Shown: one piece after another, positions 5,894 through 62,607 of the stretch | Layout: the number at the start of each line of letters is the position of its first letter | How positions within the stretch are numbered: the first letter of the stretch is position 1 | Assembly (NCBI GenBank): GCA_032718475.1 | Contig: JAUCBJ010006460.1 | Location: 1 to 64,000, forward strand | Reading direction: 5' to 3' | DNA length: 64,000 nucleotides | Source: Nemertoderma westbladi | Taxonomy: Eukaryota > Animalia > Xenacoelomorpha | Translations under genes and position numbers: made by a program | Notes under the pieces: model-generated | Databases searched by the model: none | Told to the model about the DNA's origin: nothing | The model's input: the letters and a program-made list of their open reading frames with translations, nothing else

Positions 5894-6236
5894 TTAAGGT
5901 AACGTATTCTTAAGCCTATGAAAAATTTTATTACATAAATGCTTAAGAACATAGATATAGATGGATATTCCTTTCCACTGTATATTCAAATTATGTAAGA
6001 ATGCAAACACTCCTGGTTATAAGTTACTTAATTCTTCATTGGAATTCTTCATTAGTCTGTCAGTGCGACAACTCAGCTGTACAGGACAAACATCATGTTC
6101 TACTTCACTGTCCTACAGTACCGTATGTCTCCACATATACGTAGTAAGTTTAGCATCCGGTAGTGCAATCAGATTTGCAGAGCCTTTTTGCCTTGTCGAC
6201 AGAACTTTGGTGCTAACTATTTAATTTTAGTAATTA

Positions 6237-7371: not shown

Positions 7372-9360
7372 TGCTTACAAATACCCGTATACTCCTCTGC
7401 CAACCTAATAAGTTCTCGTCTAACCAATAAGACACAAAGACTGCTCTACTGTTAAGTAAAGGGGATCAGGAGCGTGATATTACTAAATTGTAAAGGTTGC
7501 TAAATACAAAACCGCTACTTACCGTTAGATGGCGCTAATCTGCCGTCCGCTAATATAATTTACTAAATTTACACGGCTCCTGCAAAATCGCTTGTTCCTT
7601 TCTCTACCGATCGCTCGATAGAGAGCTAACTGTTCGAATCTATGAGCCACGCGGGAATAACCAAAACAATAAACCCGAGTCGGCTCCCTAAGCTTACTTA
7701 AGACGAGTGCGAGAGGCCTTGCACTCAGAGTATTCTTACGCCTAATTTTATCACTATTAAAGCACGCTATTGCCTACGTCTTTTCTAATCGCGAATACTG
7801 GGGGTTCCCTAACGTAATGTGTGAATGCGAGAATATTTAAATTATCAAAATGGTACAGTATTTGTCTCTACGTAAATAGTACCGCTCCGGGTCTAAACTT
7901 GCCTGCAGCTGGCTTTAGGCCAGCAAATTACTAGCGTGTTGTGCGTACTGGATAGTGCGATCTAGCTGATTGCCCGCTAATGCAAATAACCGCTCAGCGT
8001 GAATAGTTTACAGTACTCGAATTATTACCTTAGCTACTCTCCGCTATGCTGCGTACTAAGTCTTAATTTTACTAATCAATTACAGTCACAAATATGTAAC
8101 AGCGTACTAATTACTAAGAGTTCCAGAATGCGTAATTCTAATTTATTACGTAACAGGTTTCGCTAGTAATAGCCTAAATTGCCGTATTACTTTGACCTAA
8201 TCAGTAATTATTTGTTGTAACTAAGAAATAGAAATCAATCAGCGTCAGCAATCACAGTTCGCAATTATGCAGTTAACTACTGTATAACCCACAGTTGTGC
8301 GATTCACTATTCGTACTCCACACTCTACGCTGTGATACGTGCAGGCCTCTCCCGGGTACACATAGGATTCCTAACTAACCCGATTCTTGCCCCCTAATAC
8401 TAACTAGAGACGAAACCTGGATTATCAGCCCCCTAATTACTGTACCGGCGAATGGTCTGCATACCACAGTGTGAACTACCCGACCGCAACGGTGACCCCC
8501 CGCCAGCGTTGCCCGCCTTTGAATCCTCCGTTCTCCCTTAGTCGCTCAACCCCCCGATGTGCCCACCGCCTACTGGCACCTTAGCCCTCCATTATGCTAA
8601 TAGCTACCGTAGCGGCGCATGCAAATCACAAAGTCTGACAGTCTCAGAAATCCCTTAGGATTATTGCGTAGAAAGGAATCACATAGAACCATTAACAAAG
8701 GATAGAAATCATAGTTCCGGTTGTAATTAGCAGTAATCGATAGGATTAATTGAGAAACAACCCTATCAAAGCTGAAGTTAAGGTTGTAAGGTACAGCTCT
8801 ACCGGCAAACCGCCAATTTATAGGTGATCCGAATGGGGTGATGCAATAGGGTGACTCAATCGCTCTCCTATTGGCTCTCCAGTCCGCGCTAGCACTAGAC
8901 CAACCTGGAAGCAGTTAGTCCAATAAGGAGGCCGGATTGTAGCCCTATTGCTCCCCAAACCTCAAATTATTACCATATATGGTAATGGATCATGTCCCTG
9001 GCTGCTGAATGGCCAGGACAGCGTCCCTATATGCTAGCCCTATTGATGCTAATAACAGCAAGCACAAAATCCAGGGTCCGACTAAACTTGCTACCCTGGA
9101 ACTATCTACCTATATCCTAATACAAAATTACGTAGGTAGGGCTACATATTATACAAAATGGATGGATTCAAATATATGGGCGTTTTGATTTCCCTATCTA
9201 AATATCACCTCGCTATTATACCTTATCTAAAATATTATGCTGCACAACGGACTAACATTACGTACAGTATAACGGACTAATATTGCGTACAGTATAACGG
9301 ACTAATATATTATACTGCATAATGGCTAATAATGTGGATACAGTGCCATATACCGTAACA
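7372..9360 (-). repeat. Probable ~2 kb 3' LTR of family A
   Basis: Starts TGTTAC directly after the same GGAGCGG tract that precedes the family B 3' LTR. CCAAT boxes and TATAAA near 8820; ends ..GTAAGCA. No second copy in the window to confirm. Confidence 0.65.
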
Positions 9361-9832
9361 CCGCTCCAAGGGAAATCATATAATGTTTCCCTCCAACTGT
9401 AGAAGAGTATAAGGTGATGTATACAAACAAAATAAATTTCTTCCAAATAATCTAAATACTTGATACTATAAATCCTACTATTTACAAAATATTGCTATAG
9501 ATATTGCATAATGAATTGCATACAAATTAAATTTACAAATATTATCTCTCTCATTCAAATTAAATTTACAAAATATTGTTTCTCGTTCGTACTACATAAT
9601 GATTACTACATACAAGATCAAATATAAAAATTTTGCTAGGGCAAGTGAAAGGAGTAAGCCAAACCCGCAGGTTTGTCTCCCCAATCACTTCCTTCGCCTC
9701 TCTCATAATATAAATTCAAAACAGCTCAACTAGTGTATATGAGTCTAGTCGAATATTTCTAAAATGCTACAATATACATCAGAGCGACGATGATGTATAT
9801 ATCTAGAGTCTGTCGCCCTGTGCTATAATGTA

Positions 9833-12800
9833 TCATCGACCCGCTCCTGGGTTCTTCGGGCTCGCTCCTCTCTTTCGCCCTCTTCCCAGATACACCAGTC
9901 TACCTCCTGTAGACTCCGTTGACGGCGTCCGTGAGGCGTCACTCCCCGGAACCGGCGACGATGTTCCCTGAGCCCCGACAGATTCCCGGCTCGTGCTTCT
10001 TCCTCGGCCTCGTCCCAATTGTCGTGCTCCCGTGGTCGCTTCCGCCAACTCTTCCTTATGCAGTTGCACACGCGCCTTCTCCGACGCTCCCTGCGCCTTG
10101 CGCTGCAACCGCTGTGCTTCTATAATAGAGTGATAGTGGTCGTCCTTGACTTGACGCTTGTCTTGGACCCCTCCTCCTGGTTCCTTCCGCGAGCCTTGAG
10201 TTCCAGCGGTCGTCGCTGTGGTCGCTGCGATCCTCTGCTCCTGTATCCTCTCAGCGGTCAATGACCCCACTGGCACATGAGTCAACAAGAATTCGTTGCG
10301 GTATTGAATAGCCGCCATCCTCCAATCACCTCGCGCGCGTACCACTTTTCTAGTCTCCGAAAATACACCCTTCGTGATTCGATCGCAAATAGCAACGAAG
10401 TTCCAAGTGTATTTGTTATCCATATTCAACTGTCTGAAGTATTCTCGGACTACGATAACTCCAGTGTTTTGTGGAAGGTCTTGAGCAGTTAGGATGAGTT
10501 CCTGATATTGTGGTAGCGATTGTAGATATGGCTCGTACGCAACATGTGATGGGTCTACCGCCCAAAATCCATATCCCGCCTTGAATGGTAACCAACGCAT
10601 CTGCGCTTGAATATGGTAGTCAGCCACACTCTCCCACTTATCTAACATCTCCCGAAGTAGGTTAGCGCTATGGTTTTGAAAGGAATCATCTCGCAGCTGA
10701 CATCTCGCGCTACGATGTCCCTTTACCCCACAATATCCACATTGAGAAATGAAGACGGTGCACGTGTGAAACGAATGGTCGGTCTCATTACACCAACGAC
10801 AGACCTTATGCGCCGCCTCTACTACCGCGTCGCACGACTTTAGATTGTGCCTTGTGCTGCCGCACAACTTACACCTCCGCGCTTGTGGAAACCAGGCCCT
10901 CTCGTATATGAGGTCTCCAATCGGTTTCGCACTTCCTTCTTTCCCAATGTCTAATACAATGTCGTCCTCTCCGGACAACGGTTGTCGATCCGGAATAAAG
11001 TAAACATCCTCGCCCTTGTCCTCTATCTCCAATATTTCCTCCCGCGTTCGTTTCGGATATGTCTTCTCCACCGGAAGATCTACTCCGAACACCTCTACTA
11101 ACGTCTCCGGCCAGCCCTCCTTAACAGGTCTATCAGCCTCCGAGTGGAAGGGAGTACCAAACCCGCGGGTTTGATTCCCGAACCACTTCTCCAAAGCCTC
11201 TGGCGTCGGATATTCCATCGACGGTCGGTCTCCCAAATCTCCGATGTTCTGTCGATATACTCCTTGGAATATCGCTAATCCTCTCCTAACCATCGACGTA
11301 TTCTCTAACGATTGGTTGAAGAACGGGGTTAAGAAACGCTTCATCACGTCGGATTGGATTCCCCCTTTCGAGCGAACGTATTGATCTCCTCCGAATACCA
11401 ATGGATGACGCTTCAAAACTCGCGCAACGATATCCGCTAATAAACAAGTTAGTGTTCGACTCAAGCACCAAATAATATTGTAGCGACGCACGGGGTGGCG
11501 CGCAAATGTTCCAATACACTAACGCTTGCCGCTTGAAGTGGGATTTGAACTCCGCTCCCGGTGGCGTGTTGTATTCACCATACGCCTCCTCGTACTTCTT
11601 CTGCGTCTTTAACTTAAAGTCCCAATTATACAACAAGTGTGCTATAAAGCCCATACCAGTCTTGGCAGAGTTGGGATACTCCCTATAAAATCCAATATCC
11701 TGTGCCCATAGCAACAATAGCTTGGTGTCGACAAACGGTCTCGGCAATCTATCTTCCAGATCGGTCATGGCGTTGAAGTCGCTCTCCAAATCGCTCTGGA
11801 CTCCCGATCCCACCTTGACGTAATCTTGGTTGAGAATAGCCTCTCTAACTTTCTTGGGTAGCATCCTGGCGTCGATACGCTCCGCTCCGTGCATACCTCC
11901 TCGCCTGCATACCTCCAAAATCTGCTCCCTAGGATCCTTCCCTTTCCGATATTGTGTCGTTATGATGGGCTCCGGTCTCTCTCGATCCGCCCTCACACGC
12001 ATAAACACATGAGTCACACCATCGGCCGCACGAATTTGAATACACTTGCTGGTCATACATTCCTGATGGGATCCTCCTTCATTGTCGTAGAACATCACCC
12101 TCCAATCCTGCAGTGATTCCTCCGTTTTCCTCCACTGACGCTGAATCTCGTCTGATGGGGTCCACATGCGCTCGATAGCCTTGTGGTCATCATATCGGGT
12201 ATAAGAACCCTTCCTCCTCAGCCACGTCTGGTCTACCTCCTCGTCATCTGGGAATGTAGCCACCGCGACCCATACCTTGATGTACTTATCCAACCATCCA
12301 AATAGTTTGCTCTCCTTCCCCGGAGCTCCAATCTTATCCAATGTGTCGTAATCTGTGATCTGCATTGGGACATCACGCAAGAACTTCGCGCATAAAACTT
12401 CCCGTAGACAGTCAACGTTCCAATGATCCGCCATTCTTACCATCGGCAAGAATCGTATCGCTTCTCGCGACTCCGGATGATCTACTAATATCGCAGGTTC
12501 GGTGCCGTCGGAATAATACACCGGTCGGGGTTGAGATACGACCTGTGGAACAAATCCGGTCACTCTCCTCGTCTCCTCTTGATGTCTATCCGCGGCCTTA
12601 TTATACTCCGCTATTCTATTCTCAAATAACTCTTTCGCCTTCGCCGCTCGTTCCTCCTGCCGCAACGCGTCTATGTCGTCCTGATGCTCAGGCGTGAGGC
12701 TTCTCACTCGGTGAGGCGAAGTAAACGCAGTCCAGGGACTCGAGAGCTCCAAACCCGCGGGTTTGGTACCCGAGTCCCGTGCCGCTTCGCGCCGCGCCTC

Positions 12801-13538
12801 TAGATCCTTATAGGCTCGGTATAGCGAAATGGCCGCTGCCGTCTCTATCAAACTGGGTATCGAACAGGGTTTAATCTCCGTATACGGATCTAATGTCGTA
12901 ACGGTCGGCGTAATGGGTCTCGGAGGTCGCTTTCCGCTGAAGTCGATACTGATCATCGGGTTGCTCATCGGGTAACCTCCCTCGTTGTATCTAAGGAACT
13001 GGTGAGCTGGACATCGCGTTAATATCGGTTCTGGATGTTGCTCGTCTAGTCGATCGGAAATCGCTACGTCTTGCTTATTCATGCATTCACCACACTTGTA
13101 GAACAGCTTGTACACGCTGAAGACCTTCGGCGTCTCCTGATCCTCGCCTCGAGTCCTCCGGTACAGATGCATTCCGTCGAACTGATCTCGGACTGCAGGT
13201 AGAGGTTCTTCGTGTCGTAAATACATATTCATATGGTACAGTCGTGCGATCTCCTCATCCGGGTCTGCACTAATGTCACATACATCCAAAGCGAAGTCGT
13301 AGGGATACCGAGTGCGATACTCTCTCCGCAAAACTTCCATCCGGTCCCCCAACGCTCTCATTCTTTCCCTCCGTAATTCCTTATCATAAGTCGGTTTATA
13401 TTTTCCGTTTAGCTCCATCACGGACCGCCCATGGTAGTAAACGTTAGAGTCTTTACATCCTGGTCGCGCGAATGGTAGCTCCGCCTCCTCTCTGGCAGTA
13501 AATCCTCTGCGCGGTTGCGCTCTAATATCCTTCTCCAT
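9833..13538 (-). CDS. Accessory protein (~1230 aa if repaired): DEDD 3'-5' exonuclease-like domain, three CCHC zinc knuckles, RG-rich tail; one frameshift near 11450
   Basis: ExoI FYDNEG, ExoII LPKKVREAILNQDYVKVGSGVQSD, FVDTK, ExoIII W..(x)..LQYYLVLE. Knuckles CKLCGSTRHNLKSC, CRWCNETDHSFHTC, CGYCGVKGHRSARC. The 750-aa and 552-aa ORFs are one frame in copy 2 (59870-60769). Confidence 0.8.
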
Positions 13539-14305
13539 TATGCCTCGCGTATATACATATATATATCACAATAAGTGCCGTTACGTAACCAATTACACAA
13601 ATCAGTTAGATCAGTTACACAGATCAGTTAAATCAGTTAGATGTCGCCGAAAGACAGACCTCCCGACCCCCCCCCCCCCCCCCCCGCTTTCCAGCAGTTC
13701 AGGTTCGACTCTCTAGATCCCGTCTCTTCCTAACTAACTATCCTCTAACCTATTCCCATGCATAGCGCAAAACTTTGGAGATAAACTGGCCGTGACCAAC
13801 TCACTTTTTGATGCCCAAACTACTCCCATTACTCATACTAAACTACAGTAGTTAGAAAGGACCATAGCCACAATACTCGACTATACCAAACCCACAGTTT
13901 TGATAATCGAACATCACACATCACTGCAAACTACTGAGTGGGGTCCATGTACGCCTCTGGTTGCACTGTTGGCACCAATCTGTGGAAGTTGCTAAACTCA
14001 ATTTACACTCCTACGTAATATAGCCATCACCATGGTTTCTAAATGCTATTTTCCAGGCTTCACGACTTTTCAAATTACTGTTTATCTATAGACGAATTTT
14101 AAAACGCGTCTATACACAGCGTCTGGAATTGTCTTGGGTTCACTTCTAATTTTTAAAATTTTAAATTTTCCAAAATATTTTTGAAATAAAATTTTGTTTT
14201 GATACCCACCAGACAAAACTTAACGCAAATCACCACAACCCCGCTCCTATGCATTTCCTTGTATCTGCATACGAGGAATGCATACGAAGTGAGTTGCGTC
14301 TAACA

Positions 14306-15683
14306 CTAATTCTGTTTTGAGGCAGGAGACAAATTATAATCTCCCGTCTCGATACGTGTCTCCTCTAATAACACGATATCTTGGACCGGTCGGTCCAAGG
14401 TGTGTAAACCATTAGTTTTACACTTTTTTGGGTGCGGACACTTGCACCTAATTTTCACAGTGACTGTGCGCACTATGTTTTGCACGTCTGGGTGTGTGTG
14501 CAAGATCACTCCCGTCTCCCAATACTTTCTCTTGACAATAGGCTCGGTTATCAATACGTAATCTCCTCTTTGGAGACTCCGAACCGTTTTGTACCACTTT
14601 GTTCTGGTGGATATGGTGGGAAGATAATATTCCCGCCAATATTCCCAGAATGTGTACGCGACAAATTGAGTCATTTTCCAGCTCTTACGACTATATAGGT
14701 CGGCACTAATGGGTTCTGATGCCGGCACAAGAAATGCTGGACTCTGCATTAGCAAATGATTCGGCGTTAATGCAACACCGTCTGGCAACATAGCTATCGG
14801 CCTCGAGTTTAGTGTATGCTCGATTTCGATGAAAGTTGTAACCAGTTCGTCGTCGGTAAGTTGTTTGTTTACAGGCAATGTTTTGGCAATGGCCTGCTTT
14901 ACAGAGCGAACTAAACGCTCCCAACTTCCTCCTCTCCAAGGACTTTCTGGAGTATTAAATCTCCACTCTACTCTTTGCGGCAAAAGTGCTGCAGAAATTT
15001 CCTTATTCTGTGCCGCTTTATGAGCCGCGTTCAACTCGCTATTCCCTCCGACAAAGTTTGTACCCTTATCAGAGTAGAACGCCTTTACTAGTCCTCTCCT
15101 GGCCATAAATCTCTTTAAGGCCAGGAGCAGAGATTTGGTCGACATGTCTGCCACACGCTCGATGTGTATGGCTCTACTAGCCATGCATGTCAGTAGCAGA
15201 CCCCATCGCTTGTGGGTCAGCCGTCCACTCTTTGCTTCAATCGGACCAAAACAGTCCACCCCTGTGTTCGTAAAGGGTGGGTCATATGCCTGCACTCTCG
15301 CTTCCGGGAGTTCAGCCATCTCCTGTTCCAATACTCTGGCGTTCACCCTCTTGCAAACCAGACAGGCGTCGTACATAGTGCCTACTGCCCTGCTTGGCTG
15401 CAATAGAATGAATCGCTGTCTCGCTGCCGACAAACAGTGTAACCTTCCAACCCGTGATGCAACCTCTTGTGTATATCCCATAGAATCGCTCTTTGCAATT
15501 CTATTGGGTGACTAGGGATTATCACTGGGAACCGAAACTGTGAGTTTATGTCGACAGTCTGAATTCTCGATCTATGACAAATCAAACCCTTATGGATTAA
15601 TGGACTCCATTTTCTAAGGGGTTTATAGAGAACTGGTCGTTGAGCCGATAATAGATGGAATTCTTTCGGGAAGGCACACATTT
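14306..15683 (-). pseudogene. BEL/Pao integrase (HHCC region, DDE core, C-terminal DUF5641-like region), frameshifted near 15460-15510
   Basis: PPFTNTGVDCFGP, SDKGTNFVGG, PWRGGSWERLVRSVK, LNSRP, LTPNHLL, FWEYWREYYL, RPVQDIVLL. Confidence 0.92.
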
Positions 15684-25501: not shown

Positions 25502-25975
25502 CCGCTCCATGAAAACAGTAAGTAAGACTGTTTTCACCAATCGAAATATAAATGGTAGGGCCTAAAATATAAAAATAATCACTACCTAATTATTGCATAC
25601 TTAATATTGCAGGTACGGCGTAAATACAATCCATCATACATACAAAATACAAATTTACCAATTAACTTTAGTGCATAAAATACAAAAAAAAGCTTTCGGT
25701 TATCAAGATAAGCAAATCAGAACAAATCAAAACAAATAATTTCAAACTTTCAACAATCTTCATATATTGCAAATATACATAATAAATTCACCAAATTAAA
25801 TCAGTCCAAATATAAAACAAACATTATGAGCGAATAACTTTCAAATAAGTCTTAAAGTGTCCTCCTGACGATCTAAAAGTTCGTCATGCTGGTCTGGATA
25901 TCTTCTCCTGAGCACTAATTGCTAACGGTAGGCTCGCAAGCCTTCCTTCTCTATCTCGCTCCTCCAAAACCAACC

Positions 25976-26153
25976 TCCAAATATAAATACCCAAACATAA
26001 TATCCAAATATAATATCCAAATATAAATACCCAAATATAATATCCAAATATAATATCCAAATATAAATACCCAAATATAATATCCAAATATAAATACCCA
26101 AATATAATATCCAAATATAAATACCCAAATATAATATCCAAATACAAATATCC
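25976..26153. repeat. 13/14-bp minisatellite (CCAAATATAAATAC / CCAAATATAATAT) in the family B 3' UTR
   Basis: About 13 tandem units bracketed by a duplicated ~35-bp hairpin-containing block. Confidence 0.9.
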
Positions 26154-26195
26154 AATCGGTAGGCTCGCAAGCCTTCCTTCCTTCATCTCGCTCTC

Positions 26196-28858
26196 CTATT
26201 CCTTAGCCGAACGGGCTCGTCCACGCCCTCTAATACGATTGGGTGGTGGTCCGGATCGAACTGGACTCGGACTTCGGTGTCGAGCTGTCGGTGGTTCCAA
26301 ATCGCTAGGAAAGGGGACGACGGGAGTTTCACACATCCGTCGTGCGCTCAGTCCTCTAAATCCTCGTCCGATTCCAATCGTTTGCTTAACATTGGATCGA
26401 GTCTCCACAATGCTAGGAGGAAGTCGAAAGGGTGGGACTGTTCCGTCCTCTGACACCTCGCTCTCTGACGTTGTCTGAATTGTAATGGGTTCCGGCAAAG
26501 CATATCCTGTCCGTCCGCATGGTTCTCTAGCGAGGGAAACCGTGCCCCGAGTCATCCGGATTTGCGACTTCGATGTCATCCTCTCGGCGACATTTACTAC
26601 CTTCTTTATCTCTTGTCCGGCCTTCTGGGCTCTAAGTATACGAAGTTGCGGATCTTCCTGTGGGTGTTGAGTCTTTTCGGTTAATGGTGTGGCCTTGAAG
26701 CCAGTCTCACGCAGAACGTCCGCCTCATCTAGAATACACGAGGTTACGCGTTTGTGATAAAATGCGCTCCGGTATGCCCAAGCTATCGAATGCCAGGCTC
26801 CTCGATTCTGCTGTTCGACTCGCAATTTGTCGAATTCCCCGGTGGTAATCTTGTTCACAACAGTTTGAAAGTTCCATGTGTTCTTATTGTCGGGGTGTAC
26901 CTGTAGAAAGTAGTCCCGAACAACCTTAAATCCGCTATCCAAAGGCAATATATCCAGCACCTCCAAGAGTTCATCGTATTGAGGCATAGCTGACACGTAT
27001 GTCGACATTATGAGAGGGATTACGGCCCAAAATCCCAAGTGTGCTCTCATAGGGAAACGACGTCGCTGTGTCGATACAAGCTCGTCTGCTAGATTCTCCC
27101 AATGGTCGAATAGCTGTCGAATGATTTTAACTGACATATGCTCATAGGGGATGTCCCTAAGTTGACACTCTGATGCCCTATGACCTTTAATGTTACAATA
27201 CGTGCACTGCACCACGAAACACCAGCAAGTGTAGAAAGTGTGCGAACATTGATCCCCACACCAGTTACATACTAAGTCCAGTAGAGATATATGTTTCGCT
27301 CTGCATTTCTTTGCATGGTGGCCAGTTGCCCCGCATCTGCCACAAATAGTGTTGGCAGGGTACCAAACTCGCTCATAGATGAGATCTCCGATGGGGCGAG
27401 CGCTACCGTCCACGTGATAATTTTCATCATCCGGGTCAGTCGGTATGTTCGTCTCCGTAGGTTGTACACAAACCATGGCATCGTTTTTCTCCAACTTGCG
27501 TATCTCAGTTCGCGTCTTCCTCGGAAGGTTCTCCTCTATCTCTATGAGTTGCCGCAACGGTTCGTCTATTATCGCAAACTCGGTCGGATCCACATCGTCA
27601 TGATGGGCGGTAGGCTCGCGAGCCTTCCAGGATCCTTCCGGGCCTTTGAATTCCGCATGGCGTTCCCCGTCGTAGGGTACTAACGTCAACATCGACGGTC
27701 TGTCGACTAGGCTTCCCACGTGAGTGAGATAGACGTCCCTGAAAACGCTAAGTCCCGCTCGCATGAAAACTTCGCATTGCGCATCGGTGTTATAAAATGG
27801 TTGGAGAAATCGGCGGAATACATCAATATGCGTCCTTCCTCCGTCGTAAAAGGTATGTCCTTCACCGAGACATAACGGATGTCACTTTAGAGTCCTAGAC
27901 ACTACATCGGCGATGAAGCAAACGTTTACCGAAGATTCTATCGCCAAATAGTATTGCAAGATTATTCGTGGAGGTGAGGTAATCGCCCAGTACACGCAAC
28001 CTCGCCACTTTAACTGTGACTCAAACTCGTTTACGCCGGGGGTATCTCCCTCACCGTATACGTCCGTGTATTTGCTCCTCTTGCTCTCCTTATAATCCCA
28101 ACTAAACATTAGGTATGAGATATAACCCATTCCAGTTTTTAGCGTGTTATACTCCCTGAAATATCCTTGCTCAATAGCCCAAAGCAACAATGGTCTAGTA
28201 TCCACGTATGGCGTAGGCAATCGATCCTCCTCCGTGGGCATTCCTGCGAAATCGCTAATAAGGTCATCCCGTACACCGGATCCGATCTTGACGATACTTT
28301 TATCAAGTACAACGTCTCGTACGGCCTTTGGAAACATTCTAGCTTCTATGCTACAAGCCAGGTCCATGGATTTAACTATCCGTTTTATCATCGTGTGCCT
28401 TTGCGTCGTTCCTTCCGGCATAGGCATCTTATTGTCGCTCCTCTGTCGGCTGAAGACATGTAACACGCCATCTGGTGCTCGAATCTGTATGGTCTTTGAA
28501 GTGAGGCTTTGCTGATGGCTTCCTCCTTCATTATCGTAAAACATATAACCATTCCCCTTCAGAGATCGGCTAGTTGCGTCCCAATCGTCGAGTAAATTGT
28601 CGGTAGGTTTCCAAATTCTCCCTATTGACTTTTCATCGTCGAAACTAATAGGTTTTCCGGTCCAATTGGTCGCAATATCGGTGTCAGTCTCAAACGTGCC
28701 GACTCCGATCCATAATCGTATCGTTTTCGTCAGATATCCTCGCAAGATGCAAGGTGCGATATCCGTCCCCGCGATCCACTGCCTTAAAGTCCGTAATATG
28801 TGGAGGCACGTTGCATACGATTTTCTGTACTATCGTTCTACGCAACTCGGCTGACTCT
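26196..28858 (-). pseudogene. Family B accessory exonuclease plus CCHC knuckle ORF (N-terminus lost; frameshift near 28750, in-frame TGA at 27882)
   Basis: FYDNEGGSH, FPKAVRDVVLDKSIVKIGSGVRDD, YVDTR, KTGMG, LQYYLAIE, ARPIGDLIYERVW and three CCHC-type knuckles. Alignable with family A throughout. Confidence 0.82.
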
Positions 28859-34936: not shown

Positions 34937-36501
34937 GTTGGATATAATCTTTAATGTAACTTGAACTCTGATTGAAATCTGATTGAGAATAATTTGGGCT
35001 TCCCCACACCAATATACCAAATATTCACAATAATACACAAATATACATTCCTACAGTAAATTATTTAATTACCCACTGTTCGCTTACAGATTTTGACCTA
35101 ACTAATGTTACACATTTTCCCTCGGTCCTAGTCCCGGTACCGTAGTGTCAGTGTCGGTCGATCCTTCGCATGTCCGTCCTACCCTTCCCAATCCCTGACG
35201 GGATCAGTCATCAGGAAAGCAGTACGGCTTAGCTAGGGGTCTGTCGGTTCATCGCAGGGTCCCAACCACCTAAGCTTTCCGAATCCTTTTCAGGCTCGTA
35301 ATCGCATCGGTAGCCGAGAACCTGCTCCGAATAGTCGGTAGGCCAGTAGAGTCCTGTCCTCTGTCTTTCGACCCTGTCGCATGTCCGTCCCACCCTTCCC
35401 GAACCCCGAAGGGATCAGTCATCAGGAAAGCGGTACGGCTTAGCTAGGGATCTGTCGGCCCATTGTGAGTCCCAACTGTCGGAGCTTTCTGAGTCCCTTT
35501 CAGGCTCGGACTAATGCCAGTCGTGGAACCCACGCCAGGAATTCAGTCCTCGTCGAACCCTTCCTCTTCATCCGGTCAGTCGATCCTTCGCAAGTCCCCA
35601 ATGTGATGGAGTCCCTTTCAGGCTCAGTCGTAGCCAACGCACCGGAAACCACTTAGGATCTGTCAGTTCCCATCGCAAATCCCTGGCACAACCAGCTAAG
35701 CTTTCCGAATCCTTTTCAGCCTCGTAATCACCGCTGGTGGCCAGGAACCGCTAAGGGCAGTCCTTGTCCCCAGGCCTAGCGGGTTACCAACTACCAAAGT
35801 AGAAGAAGGTTGTCTAGGCCTAAATAACTATCAGGCAACCCTGACAGCTTAGAGTATTGCTTGATTTTGCCTCCCACCCCTGACCCTTAAATATCTGATA
35901 TTATTCCCATGCCCCGTAAGTCGCCCCAAGATTCACCCATAACTCGCCCCCGGTCTATCAAATATGCCCAAATTTTATGTTCCCGCACCCAGTACTGATA
36001 TTGGCACATTCATAAAAGATAAATCCAAAAAATATGTACCTCGCGTTATGATAAAGTGAAATACCGCGAACAGTCCCCCCCCCCCCCCCCCCCCCCCCAA
36101 TGACCTTCGTGAGGTCTATCGGTAGATCGAGTTTGCGTAGGTTATTTCCCCATATAAAAAACCAATTTTTTACTATTGCATAGTTTTGATTTTACGTACG
36201 TATAAAAATAAATGTTCGAATAAGTGTCTATAAAATGTCCTGGTCTTCTATCTCCTGCTCTGATATGCTTTCCTTTTCTACGCCCATCGACTTTCAATGA
36301 TCGCCAGTGTGGGAAGACGAGTATTGTTGTCCAACGTGAGCATCGCCGCAGCCTGCCTCCTGGCGGCCATTCCTCGGGGAGTATTCGAGATAAGATCTTT
36401 TCTCCTCTCCAGCTCCGTGGATCGGGCCGCCTGGAACCACTCTCCATCTCCAAACCCTTCCGTATACGAATAGAGACGTCTAATTGGCGCTAAGCAATAA
36501 A

Positions 36502-38404
36502 TCAACATAGTGGAAAGGCAAGGTCTTTACAGTATGGAGGCGTTCGGGGAACGAGAAGTATCCGCACGCCATCTCTTGTGCGACGTTTTCGGGCACTCAG
36601 TCGCACTCTAGTCTTTACGTGTGCATTGGCGTACGTCTTGAACATAACCATGTTCCCGGGTAGCCATAATGTCCTTAGTGGGACATTTAATGTGGCATCG
36701 AGGGCTCGCTGTATGCCCATGGAATCCGCACATTGTACACACGTTATAGAGTGTCCGGCAAACCGCTACGTCATGGCCCGGGGTAGCGCAGTATGGACAA
36801 TAGAGTATCCCAAGGATTTGGAAGCACGGTTCGGTAACTCGTTGTTTCTTTCCGCATGGACATTGATCTGAACTGCAGCTACTGCAAACATCGAGTTGCA
36901 TTTCCCGACCAAAGAAGATCGGAATCTGTACGCCGGCGTAGTATTCCAGTCGTCTATCCTTTTTCGGAATAATTGTCGTAACCGGGAGCCCACGGAACGC
37001 TGTGCTGTTGCGGAGTTGGGCCTCATTACGGTATCCTTCTTTATGGTCCGCTGGATGCATCTCAGGCACCCGTTCCTGATGGTGGATCCACTCCGTCTGT
37101 TCCGCGTACCATCTTGTGAGTCTCATCGGGTCTTGTGGAATGGTAGGAGCCGTAGCAAACCGCCGGTTGGCGAAGGGGTGCAGGAACATTCGCCGAAGGA
37201 ATCCCGAGAAGGTCTCCAGGGGTTGGCGGTATACTAGGACCCATCGTAACTTGGATAGCCGATCGGGTCCGCAGTGTACTGGTACTTGAAGTTTCTGTGG
37301 ACCAATCCTCTCCTCCAGGAAACGGGTATGGAGATAATCTCTTGCATGCATTGTCGAAGTCATTGTCGCGAGGCGAGGGTGGGAACTAGCTCTCTCGCCG
37401 GACTACCGGAGCCAAGCGGAGTAGTTACGCCAGATTCCGTCGCAGGCTCAGTCGCGGCAATACATTTAGCGGCTGATCCGTAGGCGACTTCCGGTTCGAG
37501 TTGACGTTTTGGTGTGGATAGCAGAGTGCCTTCATGTTTCCATAACTCCTCTCCTTCCAATGATACTATAGGTTCATCTGCGCCAAGGAGATCGGTAATC
37601 ATGGGGATATCGAATGGTCCGTGCAGGTCCCAGGATTCGATTACGTCTAGCGTCTTGGTATCTCCTTTGGTTTGGGTGTCGATGAAGTGGCTGATCGCGC
37701 TAATGTCCTCTCTACGTTGGTATAGTCATTCCAGAGATCCGCCTTTATATCCGACGGGATCTTGATAATATCGAAGTCGAGCAATACCTGTTGGATCGCC
37801 GATGGTAATAACCAGATCGCCCCGGCTGTCCGTAATTCCTGTTGGGGTGTCGGGAAGATTCGACATATCAGTACCAATCCATCTAGGGTTCCGAGGACGA
37901 TGATTAGCAACCAACTGTACTCCTTCGTCTCGTATTTCTCTTTATAGTCGTCTCGGTTTTGGATGACTGTCATTCGTTCCACTCGCAGCGTCGCCGTACA
38001 TTCCGCCAGATTTCCCCAGTGTGCGAGATATGTACTCTTGTCGTCAATGAAACTCTGACATCGCGCAATTGTAACCGCCTTCGGAGTCGATGTCGCATTG
38101 CCCTCGTTGTCGTATATTAGGCACCGGGATTTGTAAACGCTTCGCCGGAACGTATCCCAGACTCTCCTCCTCCGGTTACCTCAGCATTCCGAGTCCCTTT
38201 CAGGCTCGTAATTGCGTCGGTGAACTGGAGCGTCTGCAGGTTACGGGAATCCGGGACCTCCCTCCTGGAGAAACGAATGACTCGCACGTTCTCGCTCAAC
38301 AGGTTGTTCCATTTCACATCAAAACTAGGAGATCCAGGCTGTGGATAGAGCAATAAATCAATCGTATTACGTAATTCGCCAAGAATCCGGCGATTCGGGT
38401 CCAT
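36502..38404 (-). pseudogene. Family C accessory ORF: divergent exonuclease-like segment plus CCHC knuckles, several frameshifts
   Basis: LLPSAIQQVLLDFDIIKIPSDIKADL (ExoII-like), FIDTQ in the next frame, RRMFLHPFAN (compare KRFLTPFFN and RRFLQPFYN), CPYCATPGHDVAVC, CTMCGFHGHTASPRC. Confidence 0.6.
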
Positions 38405-39613
38405 ATTGTAAATTATGTCTGTTACAAATTAAATCAGTTAATCCAGAATTAAATTAAATTAAATTAAATCCAGAAAGTCTGATTCTATAGCGACTGCAGA
38501 ATAGTTATTTTTAATGTAGTTAATATTATTGCTATATAGGCATCTACCATCTTATTGCTACTACATTCAGTATTTACAGTTACTATAGCTATACATTATT
38601 ATCCAAGCAGTTTTTTGACTTTTTATGTCCACTTCTTTTTCAAATTATTTTTCCATTCTAAATGTTATACTTTTTTTTGTCTTTTTTATTTCTAAAGTTT
38701 ATACATTTCACATTTCATTTCATTTCTTTCACATTTCATCATTTATCCCACATTATATCATTTATTCCATCATTACATCATTTTATTCACCATCACATCA
38801 TTATTACACATTTCATTGGGGTTATAGCCCCCCGGCTTTCATCATTGGTTATAAGCGCAAAGCATCAGGGTGCGTCATACGCGTCATTCATACGCGTCAT
38901 CATTCAGTTTATAGTTGAGTTATCTGTTTCTTTTCATCATTTCTAATTACATTCAACCATCTTCTTGGGTAATTTTCGTTGTGGAAGGGGTGTTACGCGG
39001 CAGTCTGGGATCTACAGCTGGACTCGTTACACCGCCTACACCCCAAACTGCACACATAACGGACAATGAATAGAATGCTGGAAGTGAAGTCACGTGGAAT
39101 GCACCAGGGACCCACCAGAATAACACTCCCAGAAACATAAAGCTCAGCCGACGAAGTCACGTGGAATGCACCAGGGAATCACCAGAATAACGTGGCTGAG
39201 GAACATAACGTCTCTATCGATAAAGTCATATAGAATGGTGTTACGCAACATTCTGGGATCTACAGCTGGACTCGTTACACCGCCTATGCCCCAAACTGCA
39301 CGTAACGGTTCCACCAGAATAACGTGATAGACGGGGTGTTGCGCGGCAGTCCGGGATCTACAGCTGGACTCGTTACACCTCCTACGCCCCAAACTGCACA
39401 CGCAACGGACAACACAATACAACACAATGGATACAATGAATTCCACTTCGAATCTTTCTCATTTCCGATAATCCAAGGTAGTTGGTCCTGATGACCAAAA
39501 TCAGGGTGAACAAAACATAAACTACCCTGCGTCAGTCGAACCATCAGCAGGGTGATGCTGGACTCCACTTAACACACGAGGAAACACAAATACCATGCGT
39601 GGTTACAGTTGGT

Positions 39614-42600
39614 TTAAGGGGAGTCCATAATCATTGTCGGTAAATCACATTTAAAGAGTTTGTTAACAGGATGGGAAGGGTTAAACGGGTTTGTTATTGT
39701 CACCAATGTCCGCAGCAGGATCCTGAGTTGAGTAGGGAACTTATCACCTCTCATGGAGTCACCACTGTCATTGCCTTCGAGAAGGCAAAGCCTCTGGATA
39801 GGGCGTTGGTAGTGGCCCTTCGCTATTCGTATCGTCACCGTTCTCGCAAGTCCATCTTTGCTTGGGGTTATCTCCACGACACGTGCTACAGGCCAGTGGA
39901 CGCGGTCTTTAAGGTCTTCCTTGACTAGTACCATATCGCCAACTGCGACATTCAGGTATGTATCGTTCCACTTCAGCCTCGTTCGGAGGGTTATAAGGTA
40001 CTCCTGGGCCCAGATTCTCCACCAATGCGCCGCCAATGCTTGGGCCTTCTCCAGTTGGTGTGTTTCGCGATGACTTTGGGATCCGGGAAAGTGGCCTCCG
40101 GAAAAATGTCGGTCTTAGGCCGAGGTTAGATGGTTGGGTGTAAGGGGTTCTAGATAGGTTGGGTCGTCATGGATGGGAATGATTGGCCGGTTGTTTAAGG
40201 TGTCCATGATTTCGCAGAATGTGGTGTGCAACGTATCATGGGTGACCCGGGTATCCCCTAACGCAATCCGCATGGATCATTTCTCTAGATCAATGAGTTT
40301 CTCCCATACCCCGCTCATATGGGGTGCTAGGGGTGTCTGGAAGTGCCATTGGATGTGGTGTTCCTTCCAAACGTGCGATGCGGTTTTGTCGGTAAACCAT
40401 CCCTCAATAGACTTTCTGAGTTCCCTTTCTCCTCCCACAAAGTTTGTTCCATTGTCTGAGTACATATGGCGGCATGATCCATTGTTCGCCACGAACCGAC
40501 GCAGGGCGTTGATGAATGTGTGCTGCATGAGGTACACTATGAGGTCCAGGTAGATCGCCCTCGACCTCAGGCATGTAAAGATGGCTCCACAGCATTTAAT
40601 GTTGTATCGTCGCTCGATAACCGTAAATGGTCCGAAACAGTCTACGCCAGTTACGTAGAACAGCGGTGAGTCGGACTGGAGCCGCATGGTCAGATCGGCC
40701 ATTCTTTGGGTGAGCAGTGGCGCTAGATATCTCCTGCAAGGGTAACACCGTTTCAATACTTTCCGAATCAGTGGCTGGATGTGGGTGATCCAGTATCGTT
40801 GCCAGATATTGGCCCTGATCAAGTTTTGGCCCGCGTGATGATTTTCCTCATGACATTGTTGGACTAGCAGCTTGGATAGTATAGATGTTCCTGGCAAAAG
40901 TGCCGGATACTTAATTTCATACTCGACCGGGGTGTTCGCCATCCGGGTATTAAGGCGGATCAATCCGTCCTCTCCCATCATGGGTCTCAACTGGTAGACC
41001 GGGCTGTCAGGTTTCAAAGTCCTGCCCGTGTTGAGCTTCTCCCGGGGGAATGGGGAAACTTTCTTTCTGGACATATCTCACAATACATTTCTCCGCTATA
41101 ATGAGCTCTTATATACTCCGCCAAACTATCGGTTTGTTATCCTTCCACCGCAGGAAATTACGAAGGGTCATAGCATGGTGGATGAAACGTTTCATCGAGG
41201 AGGTCTGTTCTCTAAGGAGTCGTAGGGATGCAGCTGGTTGCTCGGTGGTCGCAACGTTATAGTGCCTGCCCGAGTCCTTTACAGGCTCAGTCAGACAGCT
41301 ATAAATCTCTACGGTGGCGCTCCCATGGACTTTGCGGATCTCCTTATCATCTTCCGAGTATTTCCCGCTATCTAATCCGGGATCGAATTGGGTGCTCTAG
41401 GTTCGTTGCGGTTGCTTTAGGAACTCTGGACCCGTAAGCCAAAGTTTACTCTTACCGAGCTGTCGTGGGGTGGCGCCTTGGCTCGATAAGTCCTGCCAGG
41501 TTCTCTTTCCCATTTACGTGATGCCACTGTTGGTGCACTGTTTTATTTCCGTGGCCCGGTTCGCCACGAATGTTGTGTGTCGCCGTGATGGTGAATGGAG
41601 GTAGTAGAGCATGATGCTAGAATCGACCCAGAAATGTTGAGATTCAATGGGGATTCTTTCGCATGATCATGCGGTTTTGTCTTACGGCCCAGACTGCGGC
41701 TTGCATCTCGAGCCTCGGGATGGTCGCCACAAATTCCCCGGATGCCATCTTCGCTTTGTACAATAAGAAACTAATATCGCCGTTTCCATCTTGGTTTAAT
41801 CTCCGTATATATGTAACCACACCGATTCCGGTATTCGAGGCATCCGAGAAGGTATGGAGCTGGAATATATCGGTGGGCAGCTTGTCGAGGAAGAACAGTC
41901 GAGGAATCCGCATGAGGTGTAGCTTTTCGAGTTGCTCCGTCCACTTCTTCCCTTTGGTGCTAAGGTGTGGGGGGAGTTCTTCATCCTACCCCAGTCCTTC
42001 GATCCACATTTCTTTAATTCGATTCATTCCGGCCAACATTACTGGGGATATGAAATTCAAAGGATCGAATATGGCACTCTTCACGGATAAACATCCCCTC
42101 TTTGTCATTGGTTTGGGCAGGTGGTTATGTTTGAAGATAAACTGGTCCTGTTTTATGTCCCATTCAATACCGAGTACGCGGTGGTCTACACCCTCGGAAT
42201 ACATTTTATCATTATCCAATTTAATTTATTCCGGGAGCCTTTCCATAAGCTCTTTGTCGTGTGATCTAAATTTTACTAGGGGGAAACCTCCCCTCTTTAA
42301 GCATTCTACCATTCCAATGGCAAGCTGATGTGCCTCGTCAACATTCTCGACCCCAGCGCATCCGTCGTCCACATAGAAACATCTCCGGGTGGTCTCAATG
42401 ACAGTCGGAGGAAACTCATTTTCGCACAGGGTCGCAGTTTTTTTAGCATGTCGCTGCATGCGACTGGCGAATCTTTAGCACCGAAGATCCGGACGATCAT
42501 ACGCATTACGTCCACATCCTCCAAGGTAAGTTGATTTATCTCTTGTGGGGTTAATGCTTTGTCTGTCCATAGAATACAAAGGCAATCAGAATCTCGTGGT

Positions 42601-45600
42601 AGAGTTCGCACTTGGTGGAACATTGCTTTGATGTCGCACGTGAAGGCGACTTTATTCTCCCGGAATCAGATTAATACGCCGATCAGCGGACTGTATATGT
42701 TGGGTCCGGTGTATAGCTGGCTATTCAATGATTCACCTTGGTACATAGCCACCGCATCATTCACGACCCGGATCTTTCCGCCCTTCTGGGCCTCTACTAC
42801 ATAGTGGGTCGGAAGATAGTTAGTCTGTTTTGTCCCCTGCAGTTCGTCCCGGGGAACCATCTCCACCAATCCATCTTCCAGGTATCTCTTAATTACGTTG
42901 TTATACTTTTCTTTGATCTTGGGTAGCTCGTACAATCTGCGCAAGATCCCTTTTAGCCTCCTCAGGGCCATACTAGCATTGTTAGCGTTCGGTCTGTCCA
43001 GATCCTTCCATAACATTGGTGAGCACCAATGCCCATCCTTAAACACTGCTTGGTCCAGGACGTCCATAGAGTATTGGTCCTCCTCTGATGGGTTTTCCTC
43101 TTTTTCGGCGAATTCTTGGGTTTCCAGGTTGAAGTATTTCATCATTTCTTGTTGTGTCTTCTCCATTTCTAGGAATAGATCCTCATCCATATTGGTCGCC
43201 GAACAGTAACCCACGGATGTTGTATTCCCTTCGATCTGACACTTTGGAAGGTATGTATAGGTGTCGGTGGTTTCCTCTTTAATACCGCAGAGCGTCCATC
43301 CCATAATAGTGCGCTCTGCATAGAAACCGTCATCCAGCTTTACGGAAAGGGCGATATCTCCAGTAGGTATATGTAATTCTGGGGTATCGAGTCCGATAAG
43401 TAAAATAATTATATTAACGTCCAATGGTGGGCATCTTAGATCTACATCCTCTCGATCTAGTTGTATGAGGGGTGTGTATTCAGAGGATTGTCAGAATCGC
43501 ACTCTGAGATCGGTATGCACCAGGGCGTTTTAATAGTTAGTTTTACCTTTTCATAACCTTCCATAACCCCTTCTACACTGAGTTGCACCTCTCCGGACTC
43601 CACTTCCTTATGGTCCGTTATAGTTTGTATGGGTCGCTTACAGGGCTCATATTCTAGACCCAACTGTTCCAGAAAGTCCCTGTTGATTATGGTCCCATCT
43701 GACCCATTATCCAGGAACGCAAGTGTGGTCACGGATTTCCCGACGCCTTGGATCCTCACCGGTATTACCTTGGCAAAGACCATGTACCGTCGGTTGATTA
43801 AGTTGACCGTAGCCGATATACTGGTAAAGTGTGCTACGTCAGCGGTGGTCTTGAACGGGTTCGTTTCTCTCCGCTGGATCATCCGAGGACCCTTTGAGAT
43901 GTGGTTTGTCTCCCCTCTCCGCTTGGACTCGATAGGGAATGGTAGTGTAGTGAAGTCAAAGTTTGCAGGAGTGTGGAGGAGCGTGTGATGTCGTAGATCG
44001 TTGCAAACCGCACAACAGGACCTCTGTTCACAATCCCTCATATAATGGCCTGTGCCAAGACACCGGAAGCATCCTCGGTGTTTCATGATTGCCTCAAAGT
44101 GCTGAACTAGTTCTGCAAACTGGAACTTTCTGCAGAATTCTACTTTGTGCTTCTCTCCGCAGAAGAGATATAGAAGGGAGATTGTTGTGCCTTCCCTCTC
44201 AGGCGCCCAATTTGCCAGATAGCACGCCCATTCTTCTGCCGACATCGGTTCCTCATAATCCTCGTCATCCGAATCCTCGGCCATGGTGATGGCCATCGTA
44301 CTTACCGGGGGAGGGCGGAATCTCGGTTTTGGAGTGGGTGCCCTGCTCCGAGAAGTGCTCTCTATCCAATCCAACTTGGAGAGACTCTGTTTAGAGAACA
44401 TGGAGTCGTTCATGACCTAGGAGATGTCATCTAGGAATGCCGACATTTCAAGAAAACTAGGATCCCGATCCGGGTGTATTTGTCTGAGATCTACACATTT
44501 ATATGCCCATTTACATTGTAGCCATCCGGGGAATTTCCGGGCAATTTGTCGGAGGTTTAAGATATTATTCACTTGTTCCTCCTTGTTTAATGGTTTCAGG
44601 GTATAATAAGCATCCTTCATTGAGTCCGAAAACTCTTGGATATTCTGTGGGTCCCCTAGGGATCCAGCATCCTGTATCAGTTTTTCAAGTGTCTTGTTAA
44701 TTATGGTTCCAACATTGCCATATCTTTTATCGACCATTTTCCATGCATCGTGGTACGCCTCGTGGGATCCTCCTTCAAAACATCTCATAATACGGCATGG
44801 TTTTTCACCCAGATACTGAGACAAATATACCAACTTTTGTGCATCGGTGATGTCCGTCGATCCGGTTTGAGCGAAGAACCGTTTTTTAATTTCAACGGGA
44901 TCACCCTCGAAGGTACGGATTTCCATCTTAGGCATAGCCAGGCGGTTCTCCAAGTCTCGGATGATACCGATGTCGTCCGAACTAGAATGACTAGGAGGTC
45001 CCTAGTTACTAACACTCTCTCCCATAGATGATGGATCGATAAGAGGTGGAGTTTTAATAACATTGCAGTTACGGATTTTCGGAGTGGACGTGAATGGATT
45101 AGTGGATCGAGGGGTGGCGTCACGTTCCGAGTCCCTGTCAGGCTCGTACTTGTGATCGCTCGATGCCGGAGGATTGGAGGGGAAAGTTCCTCATTCTTAA
45201 GCGTAACCAGTGGGGGGCGGAAAACCGGTGCTTGCGCCGAGAGTGTGGACCGTATGACCAGCGGGAATTCGGGTTTCGGAGGTTTTACTGCTGGTGGTGT
45301 AATCGACTTTTCTAATTCCGGAACCGGAATTGGTTCATAGTCCTGTTCTATACCCTTTTCCCAGTCCTCATATAGTTGAAGGTCTCGTTCTATGAGTGCG
45401 GCTTCATAGTCTGCGAGTTTAGCAATATCCGCATTCTCCTTGTCAATAAGAAGTGCTTGGGCCTCGGCATTCCGTTTACGCATTTCAGCCTCTTGTTTCC
45501 ATATTTCGGCCTGTTGTTCGGCCTCTTGTTTCTGTATTTCAGCCTGTTGTTCGGCCTCTTGTTTCCGTATTTCGGCCTGTTGTTCAGCCTCTCGTTTACG

Positions 45601-49204: not shown

Positions 49205-49214
49205 TTAATGTAAT

Positions 49215-55044: not shown

Positions 55045-57121
55045 CTAGTTTGGTATGGTAGCCTACCTTCGCCGAGAGGTGAGTCAGGATAAATTTGAGA
55101 CGGCCTTTGTGACTTCTAGATCAAAGACAATGCCGGTCAAATACATGACTGTCCCTCGTGCAGAGTTGCAGGCAGCAGTAGTATCGGTTGAGGTAAGTAA
55201 ACAAATAATAGAGGAGTTAGACACAACCTTAACATTATTCTATTGGATGGACGCATCTTTAGTGCTAGTGTATATTGCAGCTGACAATATTGCACTAAAG
55301 ACATTTGTAGGCAACAGACGTGATACCAAACCCAAGGGTTTGATTGGCCATTGATGAACATTGGCCAGAGCGACTGAAGATTGTTACCAATCCGATGCCG
55401 ATAGACGTAGAGGTCAAGTTGGATAAGGTTTCCAAGTCTAAGTCGAAAGCCAAACAAGAATCATTGGAGCGGCCTGAAGAATCATTGGAGCGGCCTGAAG
55501 AATCACTGGAGCGGCCTGAAGAATCATTGACGCGACCTGAAGAATCATTGGAGTGGCCCGGAGACTTGTCGGACCAAGAGACATATGTGACTACAAGGTC
55601 AGAAGGGTAAGTTATGACATAAAACCACCCTTACCGACTGCGCCAGGGTCACAGTTTGTAAGTGACGGACAGCAAATAGCCACCAAGATGGAGCCTTCGG
55701 TTTCCAAATCTGCGGGTTTGGATTCGAAGATTCCATTGGCTAGTGCGCAACCGTCACCAGCATTAGAGCCACGTAGTATTTATGACAAATTGTTAAACTT
55801 ATCCACCTCTTGGCTGACAATTTGTAAAAGAACTGCATGGTTGAGCCGATATGTTTCGTTTCTTTGTTTAAAATATACAAAACATTTAGGAGATCAAACA
55901 AGCACCAATAGTGAGCGAATTCGGAGGTTGAAACAACCCCTGACAGGGGCTGAGATCGATCAAGCAGAATTAAAACATTTGATACATTATCAAATGTGTG
56001 CCTTCTCAAAAGAATTCTATCTGTTATCGGCTGAACGACCAGTTCTTCATAAACCCCTCAAAAATGGAGTCCATTAATACATAAGGGTTTGATTTGTCAT
56101 AGATCAAGAATCCAGACTGTCGACATAAACTCACAGTTTAGGCTTCCCAGTTATAATCCCTAGTCACCCAATAGAATTGTAAAGAGTGATTCTATGGGAT
56201 ATACAATATATAAGAGGTTACATCACGCGGGAAGGTTACACTGCTTGTCGGCAGCGAGACAGCGATTTTTTATGTTGCAGCCAAGCAAGGCAGTAGGTGC
56301 AATGTACGACGCCTGTCTGGTTTGCAAGAGAGTAAACGCTAGAGTATTGGAACAGGAAATGGCTCAACTCCGAAAGGCGAGAGTACAGGCATATGATCCA
56401 CCCTTCACAAACACGGGAGTGGATTGTTTTGGCCCGAATGAGGCAAAGAGTGGGCGACTGACCCACAAGAGGTGGGGCCAGAAAGTACCTGGAGAGGGGG
56501 AAGTTGGGAGCATCTTGTTCGCTCCATAAAACAGGCATTGGCTAAAACAATGCCTGTGAATAAACAACTGACAGACGATGAGTTGGTAACAGCTTTCTTT
56601 GAAATCGAGCATACCTTAAACTAGAGGCCGATAGCTATGTTACCCGACAGTGTTACGTTGACACCAAATCATCTGCTCATGCAGAGTCCGGCATTTCTTG
56701 TACCAGCATCAGAGCCCATTAGTAGCGACTTATATAGTTGGAAAAGCTGGAAGATAACCCAGTTTATAGCGTACACATTCTGGGAATATTGGCGGGAATA
56801 TTACCTTCCTACAATATCCACCAGATCAAAGTGGCACAGAACAGTTCGGAGCCTCCAAAAGGGAGACTACACTATATAACCGAACCAATAGTGAAGAGAA
56901 AATACTGGGAAACCGGCATAATCTTGCACATACACCCGGATGTACAGAATGTAGTACGCACTCTCACAGTTAAAATAAGGTGCAAGTGTCCAAACAAGAA
57001 AAAGTGTAAAACCAAGGGTTTACACACCTTGGACAGACCGGTCCAGGATATTGTGTTATTAGAGGAAACACGCATCGAGACAGGAGACTATAATTTGTCT
57101 TCTGCCTCGAAACAAAATTAG
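55045..57121 (+). pseudogene. BEL/Pao pol fragment (RNase H, tether with ESLERPE x5, integrase with an internal deletion)
   Basis: GMVAYLR, TVPRAELQAAV, FYWMDAS, TFVGNR; PPFTNTGVDCFGP; same C-terminus as 14306-15481. Confidence 0.88.
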
Positions 57122-62289: not shown

Positions 62290-62607
62290 ATCGTCGCTCT
62301 GATGTATATTGTAGGCTTTAATTATATATCCGACTGGACTCATATACACACATAATCGTATTTGTTCTAAAATTTATTGAAGGATGAAAGCGGATGGAGG
62401 CGAAGGAGGTGATTGGAGAGACAAACCTGCGGGTTTGGCTTACTCCTTTCACCTACCCAAGCGATCACCAATTGAAGGGTGATTGCGTTTATTATACATT
62501 AAGTAAAGTGTCCGAAATGAAAGAAATTATTACGTAATTTTATATTTAGTTGATTATCGGCCTTTACAATAATTACATTAATATTTAGTTAACCGAATTA
62601 GCCTTAA

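Follow-up and report, generated by a model that had tools for sequence, protein, structure and literature searches.

A selected, repeated hairpin signal in a BEL/Pao retrotransposon family is part of a three-family pattern

The motif CAAACC-YGCG-GGTTTG of a BEL/Pao family (family A) is a selected, repeated hairpin signal, and it is part of a pattern, new relative to the first-pass annotation of this DNA, in which each of the three BEL-type families in the 64,000-nucleotide stretch of Nemertoderma westbladi DNA analysed here (the window) repeats a hairpin of its own; all three carry a related accessory open reading frame (ORF), and we claim four to seven repeats per element. The annotation had proposed a selected RNA signal, and this proposal is now supported by covariation in the lower stems, suppression of synonymous change, fixed orientation and the parallel hairpins in two further families (B and C). 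When 7465 hairpin cores were scanned without bias, the only dispersed clusters were the three BEL motifs, once satellite units, the 163-nt units of DNA transposons and AT-rich words that do not fold were set aside. The recurrence in three families is our main argument both for RNA and for a reader encoded by the element; the comparison covers three BEL families, all with the accessory ORF, and the covariation comes from paralogous rows of family A. That the hairpins are an RNA signal of some kind is highly probable. Our working hypothesis, to which we give a probability of roughly 0.45, is that the hairpin may be a multi-copy, family-specific self-tag bound by the element's own accessory protein.

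Family A elements and their hairpin sites

The window is repeat-rich eukaryotic DNA in which family A is represented by copy 1 (9635-15683, minus strand) and copy 2 (55992-62462, plus strand), about 78% identical. BEL/Pao pol domains, Peptidase_A17 (55049, plus strand) and an integrase bearing DUF5641, were detected with E-values of 4e-12 and 8e-18; the integrase of copy 1 was located by domain search at 14306..15511 on the minus strand, its best listed relatives are 33-43% identical, the named ones being from animals, and DUF5641 is also present in family C. For family B no pol lies in the window, and its assignment to BEL comes solely through its accessory paralogue. No family A reverse transcriptase was found among the ORFs scanned in the window, nor was an LTR pair found there, and candidate 3' LTRs were assigned by eye; that of copy 1 (7450..9360, minus strand), which has no partner LTR in the window, has the form TGTTA...TAACA and contains CCAAT, TATAAA and AATAAA. 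Family A is abundant, 9214 contigs of public run X1 aligning over 6.4 kb.

Several neighbouring repeats were recorded alongside these elements. The 3' UTR of copy 2 contains an inverted solo LTR (61649-62289, TG..CA) of uncertain family with a 5-bp ATCGT duplication, related to the LTRs at 52901-53533 and ~28850-29427. Directly after the latter two, at 53534 and 29428, comes GTAA.. without a TGG tRNA primer-binding site, so that their priming is possibly unusual; both end in a small GGGATC..GATCCC hairpin, and the end of the copy 1 candidate LTR is similar. A satellite of 33/65/68-nt units (49100-52900) lies directly upstream of the LTR at 52901. DNA-transposon-like ends, 97-99% identical, occur at 2311-3155, 5165-5897, 17332-18896 and 62604-64000, one of them truncating copy 2, and have 163-nt subterminal units each with a palindrome.

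The six sites that the first-pass annotation had given for the family A motif, at 9660, 11158 and 12750 in copy 1 and at 58666, 60236 (one mismatch) and 62422 in copy 2, were all confirmed at those coordinates. In the shuffle test the motif count was 3 against 0.03 expected (0/1000 shuffles), and with up to two mismatches allowed the 16-mer gave 17 strand-matches at nine places against 0.10 expected, a total reached by none of 100 shuffles. All nine places fall in the two family A copies. The three sites added to the original six are 13887 (UGUG), which is in the integrase-accessory intergenic region and whose copy-2 counterpart (~57549) is partly deleted, and 55705 (UGCG) and 55327 (CAAG), both in copy-2 pol. 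Four of the six family A positions lie in or adjoin the accessory gene. Two sites are within coding sequence, as had been noted, and the reading frame differs relative to the motif (KPAGL vs QTRGF). Orientation is fixed, and asymmetric loops always have their sense reading on the transcribed strand. With a CGCG loop the motif is a perfect palindrome of 16 bp. The 3' UTR and 11158 sites have 12 of 16 bases of their 5' flanks in common, a hint of duplication.

Most of these sites are predicted to form stem-loops of 45-55 nt, with z between -1.9 and -5.1 for five and -1.25 for the copy-1 intergenic site. On the minus strand of copy 1 the hairpins are found in the 3' UTR (9644..9690, core 9660-9675, UGCG loop, z -3.8), in the accessory coding sequence within the linker that joins the exonuclease-like region to the zinc knuckles (11143..11190, CGCG, z -1.9), in the N-terminal part of that coding sequence (12735..12781, CGCG, z -3.7) and in the gap between integrase and accessory ORF (13867..13922, UGUG, one apical mismatch), where 11/11 flank columns pair in a shared register. 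The plus-strand hairpins of copy 2 are those of the 3' UTR (62402..62457, UGCG, z -5.1), of the accessory coding sequence (60216..60271, one apical pair broken) and its N-terminal part (58646..58701, z -3.8) and of the RNase H-integrase linker (55685..55740, UGCG, one U.G pair, z -4.8), together with a weaker variant in pol (55327..55342, CAAG) without the extended stem.

Fold, covariation and selection at the family A hairpin

A gap-free alignment of eight family A sites from five paralogous positions, with 55327 and the deleted copy-2 intergenic site excluded, gave a common predicted fold of three stems, the apical one of 6 bp and the lower ones of 4 and 5 bp, separated by a 3x5 internal loop and then a 2x2 loop. 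Across the paralogous sites, seven of the nine lower-stem pairs have changed on both sides with pairing kept. The proportion of lower-stem cells that are paired is 87.5%, compared with 77.5% after shuffling, and on three measures, among them cells paired and the covariation score, the observed value was reached in 0/500 shuffles, while two pair-count measures were equalled in 21/500 and 6/500; these counts lean towards the fold because the structure was derived from the same eight rows. The 5' and 3' flanks of a site also pair better with each other than with those of other sites (2/720 permutations, six positions). In the apical stem the sequence is conserved, none of its six pairs showed a compensatory change over the eight sites, and one change in copy 2, at a coding site, breaks this stem on the sense strand. 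At the mismatched apical position of the intergenic site 13887 all aligned contig depth in four public runs has the pairing base, unlike copy 1, and the mismatch is therefore private to that copy.

Between the two copies, the compensatory A-U to G-C change that had been noticed in the 3' UTR stem (AAGUGA..UCACUU vs AGGUGA..UCACCU) is real, and the sole other change in this 48-nt stem-loop is from G.U to A-U; pairing is kept in 3/3 changes. The eight changes listed for the two coding hairpins comprise two wobble/Watson-Crick swaps, five at unpaired positions and the one apical break. On the antisense strand the family A hairpins fold with about the same stability as on the sense strand. Rfam covariance models gave no match at the gathering score over the whole window and none at E<=1 over 9400-14400. 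Three known elements were compared by inspection with their consensus features and rejected: a SECIS element, as the 3' GA quartet is missing; a GCM site, whose last base is mismatched and which is missing from family B; and a Smaug element.

The synonymous-site check suggested for the in-coding hairpins bore the annotation out, with synonymous differences in 2/27 codons compared with 372/930 overall (combined p=1.8e-4), 0/13 for the N-terminal hairpin (p=0.0013) and 2/14 for the linker hairpin (p=0.04). A second zone without synonymous differences (0/14 codons), in which no motif was seen, lies just downstream of the 11158 hairpin at 11053-11110. The 3' UTR around the hairpin had been described as otherwise diverged, and this holds for the flanks, of which 39/62 and 23/61 positions are identical as against 54/57 in the module, but not for a second conserved block at 9760-9790 (28/31).

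Public contigs covering 9625-9715 numbered 117, 124, 55 and 2 per run, where runs X1 and X2 are one sample, run X4 may be RNA and the contigs carry no strand information. Contigs whose flanks cannot be aligned nevertheless keep the 9633-9705 module and break off at ~9633 and ~9705. The sole variant place listed in this stretch is loop position 1, so that no stem covariation was seen in the contigs. In run X1 there are 272 variant places in 6401 nt (our summation), or about 4 per 91 nt, and the comparison of this expectation with the one variant place in 91 nt is soft because variants close to the ends of contigs are lost when so short a stretch is aligned. The C form of the 3' UTR loop accounts for 26%, 9% and 9% of contig depth in three runs and for 66% in the fourth (2 contigs).

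Parallel hairpins and accessory proteins of the three families

Family B repeats GG-A-AGGCU-YGCG-AGCCU-A-CC three times (0.02 expected; 0/1000 shuffles), and compared with family A the YGCG loop is retained, here closed by U-A, and the stem is replaced. All three copies are on the minus strand: AGGCU-CGCG-AGCCU at 27609..27628, with a z of only -0.55 over 38 nt, is in the accessory coding sequence, in the linker region that matches the 11158 site, and two AGGCU-UGCG-AGCCU hairpins, which are probably one duplication, are in the 3' UTR (26158-26177 and 25927-25946, spanning 25927..26177). The weak family B fold counts against the argument for RNA, as does the antisense stability seen in family A. 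The family B accessory ORF (26196..28745, minus strand) is in pieces with its 5' part missing, and has 47% and 33% amino-acid identity to parts of that of family A.

The family C element (35-45.7 kb) contains a bulged, non-palindromic hairpin seven times, with GAAA, GUAA or GACA loops and with seven G.U cells on the sense strand vs one on the antisense. On the minus strand, GAG-CCU-GACA-GGG-A-CUC is in the gag-position ORF (45129..45145, z -2.0), a GUAA-loop copy in the RNase H-integrase linker (41272..41288, z -6.4) and a GAAA-loop copy in the accessory region (38191..38207); four more with GAAA loops (35281..35723), part of a local repeat, are in the putative 3' LTR, where a TATA-like word at 35893 lies upstream of them. 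This putative LTR (35150-35800) is built of repeated GC-rich units carrying the four hairpins, and a CUGAUGA-stem arrangement within it resembles, without matching, a hammerhead core, with no Rfam match at the gathering score. Pieces of the family C accessory ORF (36608..38428, minus strand) contain a YDNEG motif and CCHC knuckles.

The accessory ORF, of about 1,230 codons, follows the integrase. In copy 1 it extends over 9833..13538 (minus strand) with a frameshift near 11.4-11.5 kb, and in copy 2 it is broken elsewhere. A very stable predicted hairpin lies just past the integrase stop in both copies (14236-14301 and 57132-57197; z -7.4 and -4.6) and could bear on expression of the accessory ORF; copy 1 also has some 20 consecutive G residues on its sense strand (13668-13687), upstream of the accessory ATG, a tract which is not at the matching place in copy 2. 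Common to all three accessory proteins are the YDNEG motif, an LP..V...L....K...D.....D block and CCHC knuckles, the latter present in family A as three CX2CX4HX4C zinc knuckles (10700..10873, minus strand) recognized from sequence and alignment, Pfam matching them only below threshold.

A DEDDy/WRN-exonuclease-like region, weakly supported, is placed at 11490..12110 (minus strand). The D-x-E of ExoI (YDNEG, matched by eye) and the ExoII Asp are present, the latter in register with D85 of RNase D; RNase D and a 10-sequence DEDDy profile both align in register at ExoII, neither of them significantly, with an hhalign probability of 2-3%. The Atlas search returned PF01612 in 25/30 hits (best score 0.91), with 158-164 shared features, below the guide value of 170, and with a DEDDy profile HMM an accessory piece ranked first of the 329 ORFs of the window, at E=1. 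The region has no Pfam or NCBIfam match and no relevant PHROGs match; no homologues of the N-terminal and exonuclease-like parts were found in the protein databases searched, a PDB sequence search returned no exonuclease, tblastn against plasmids gave three weak unrelated matches, and scans of loci gave 181 and 44 pattern matches, none confirmed, and 0 DNA matches. An AlphaFold model of the accessory region had a pLDDT of 34, and a fold search with this poor model gave no Z of 5 or more. An exonuclease-like fold appears probable. For the Y-x3-D of ExoIII, neither of the Tyr candidates in families A and B was found to have an Asp four residues further on, and for this reason the domain, if the fold is right, would likely be a pseudo-nuclease.

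Candidate readers of the hairpins

In the mechanism that we propose, the hairpins would fold in the transcript and their reader would be encoded by the element. An element-encoded reader seems probable because the hairpin sequence hardly varies inside a family and is exchanged for another from family to family in one genome. The accessory protein would then do the reading, its knuckles perhaps taking the G-containing loop and its degenerate exonuclease fold the bent stem; several hairpin copies would give avidity, and the RNA might be routed, by transport or export towards packaging, or protected. The reading by the accessory protein and the routing or protection are the weakest of these steps. 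Binding might lead to export, localization, protection, packaging or autoregulation. A broader version, which we think unlikely as a whole, is that these BEL elements may encode their own adaptor resembling Egalitarian, in the form of a pseudo-exonuclease that carries zinc knuckles, and that each family would have a private multi-copy RNA zipcode, the resulting orthogonal code routing only cognate genomes (export, germline transport or packaging) and keeping co-resident families apart.

Parts of this arrangement have counterparts elsewhere. In the Rev/RRE and Rex/RxRE systems an element-encoded accessory protein handles the element's own genomic RNA, as we propose here, although the RNA signal there is a single large element and not a set of short dispersed copies. 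The CERV protein likewise exports Cer1 RNA (PMC10309623) but is a different protein from the BEL accessory protein, and no passage on a 'stem-loop', 'response element' or 'RRE' was found in that text. The elements described here resemble other BEL/Pao elements (Belpaoviridae) in Peptidase_A17 and the DUF5641 integrase, and differ in the extra ORF after the integrase and the dispersed family-specific hairpins; searches of the open-access literature listed no report of such hairpins or of an exonuclease-knuckle ORF in BEL/Pao. The Juno and Vesta LTR elements of bdelloid rotifers have a DEDDy ORF3, also an exonuclease-type ORF in the env position (PMC5408684), but they belong to other LTR lineages and their catalytic residues are intact (DEED), whereas the ExoIII Asp was not found here. 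The rotifer paper notes inactive DEDD derivatives that retain RNA binding, and its main text contains no occurrence of 'hairpin' or 'stem-loop' (PMC5408684). All family A and B loops fit the YNMG/YNUG sequence consensus (UGCG, CGCG and CAAG being YNMG, and UGUG being YNUG), a tetraloop class found in domain d of the enterovirus oriL, which is bound by 3C (PMC5633025); that domain, however, is a single copy within a cloverleaf, and the family B loop is closed by U-A and the family C loops are GNRA-type.

Other readers of the hairpins have to be considered. The hairpins could be dispersed packaging signals read by the nucleocapsid knuckles of each family's Gag, with the accessory ORF unrelated. 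RNA viruses are known to have dispersed packaging signals, family specificity would fit any element-encoded reader, hairpin sites occur in gag and pol as well, and family C Gag has a CCHC knuckle (those of family A Gag are outside the window). However, retroelement packaging signals usually cluster near the 5' end, whereas four of the six family A positions fall within or beside the accessory gene, and any subgenomic accessory mRNA would carry them too; we regard Gag as a serious competitor, but on balance an unlikely reader. A host RNA-binding protein, such as an Egl/BicD-like adaptor or an export or stability factor, is improbable. The exonuclease-homology domain of Egalitarian contacts bent stem-loops (TLS/ILS/GLS) with 3' bulges, its catalytic residues being dispensable; two stem-loops are needed per RNA, and the I-factor localization signal, with which the present hairpins may be compared, is in coding sequence (PMC13186709). 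The predicted family A folds, with an upper helix of 6-7 bp, a 3'-side excess of 2 nt and a lower helix, roughly fit this geometry, for which U-A pairs at two defined positions are a further criterion, and the YGCG loop is common to families A and B. The family B and C cores, on the other hand, do not fit and are too short for the two-helix rule; and Egalitarian is a host protein that reads shape across unrelated sequences, a mode of reading with no need for a sequence fixed within each family and different between families of one genome.

A palindromic DNA site, bound by the accessory protein or by one of the host, would have a precedent in VANC/VANDAL, where a short family-specific DNA motif accumulates and coevolves with an anti-silencing accessory protein (PMC5735166), albeit as a linear motif in tandem non-coding repeats of a DNA transposon and not as a structured, dispersed and partly coding one. 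The palindromic CGCG form, the equal stability of the antisense fold in family A and the four family C copies in a putative LTR would suit such a site, but the lower stems covary without keeping their sequence, G.U is tolerated on the sense strand in family C, asymmetric loops are always sense-oriented and the family C motif is non-palindromic and bulged, which makes a DNA site very improbable. The first-pass annotation had also suggested dimerization through the palindromic CGCG form, and this is now disfavoured and, for kissing sites of genomic RNA in general, we give it slightly less credence still: CGCG is self-complementary, as is UGCG with wobble, and GACG tetraloops contribute to retroviral dimers (PMC516450), but in three of the four runs the C form makes up the smaller share at the 3' UTR site, self-complementarity is not conserved among the loops (UGCG, CGCG, UGUG, CAAG and those of GAAA type), and these are only 4 nt long and spread over many kilobases. 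Least probable of all is a neutral by-product, in which reverse transcription, through template switching or quasi-palindrome correction, copies and homogenizes a functionless hairpin. Palindrome correction can mimic compensation, and the shared 5'-flank bases of the 3' UTR and 11158 sites would fit; against it, the same pattern is present in three divergent families, the reading frame differs between sites that have nevertheless been kept, and there is both suppression of synonymous change and retention of G.U pairs.

The self-tag hypothesis touches on two open questions: how an LTR retrotransposon selects its own RNA when many families reside together, and what role captured exonuclease-like ORFs have, which the rotifer paper leaves open (PMC5408684). 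Here one genome contains three families, each with a candidate reader and a short RNA site as the candidate target, and with RNAs this small and domains that can be isolated a 3 x 3 cross-binding experiment is feasible. If the pairs proved to be orthogonal, they would provide new RNA-tagging tools.
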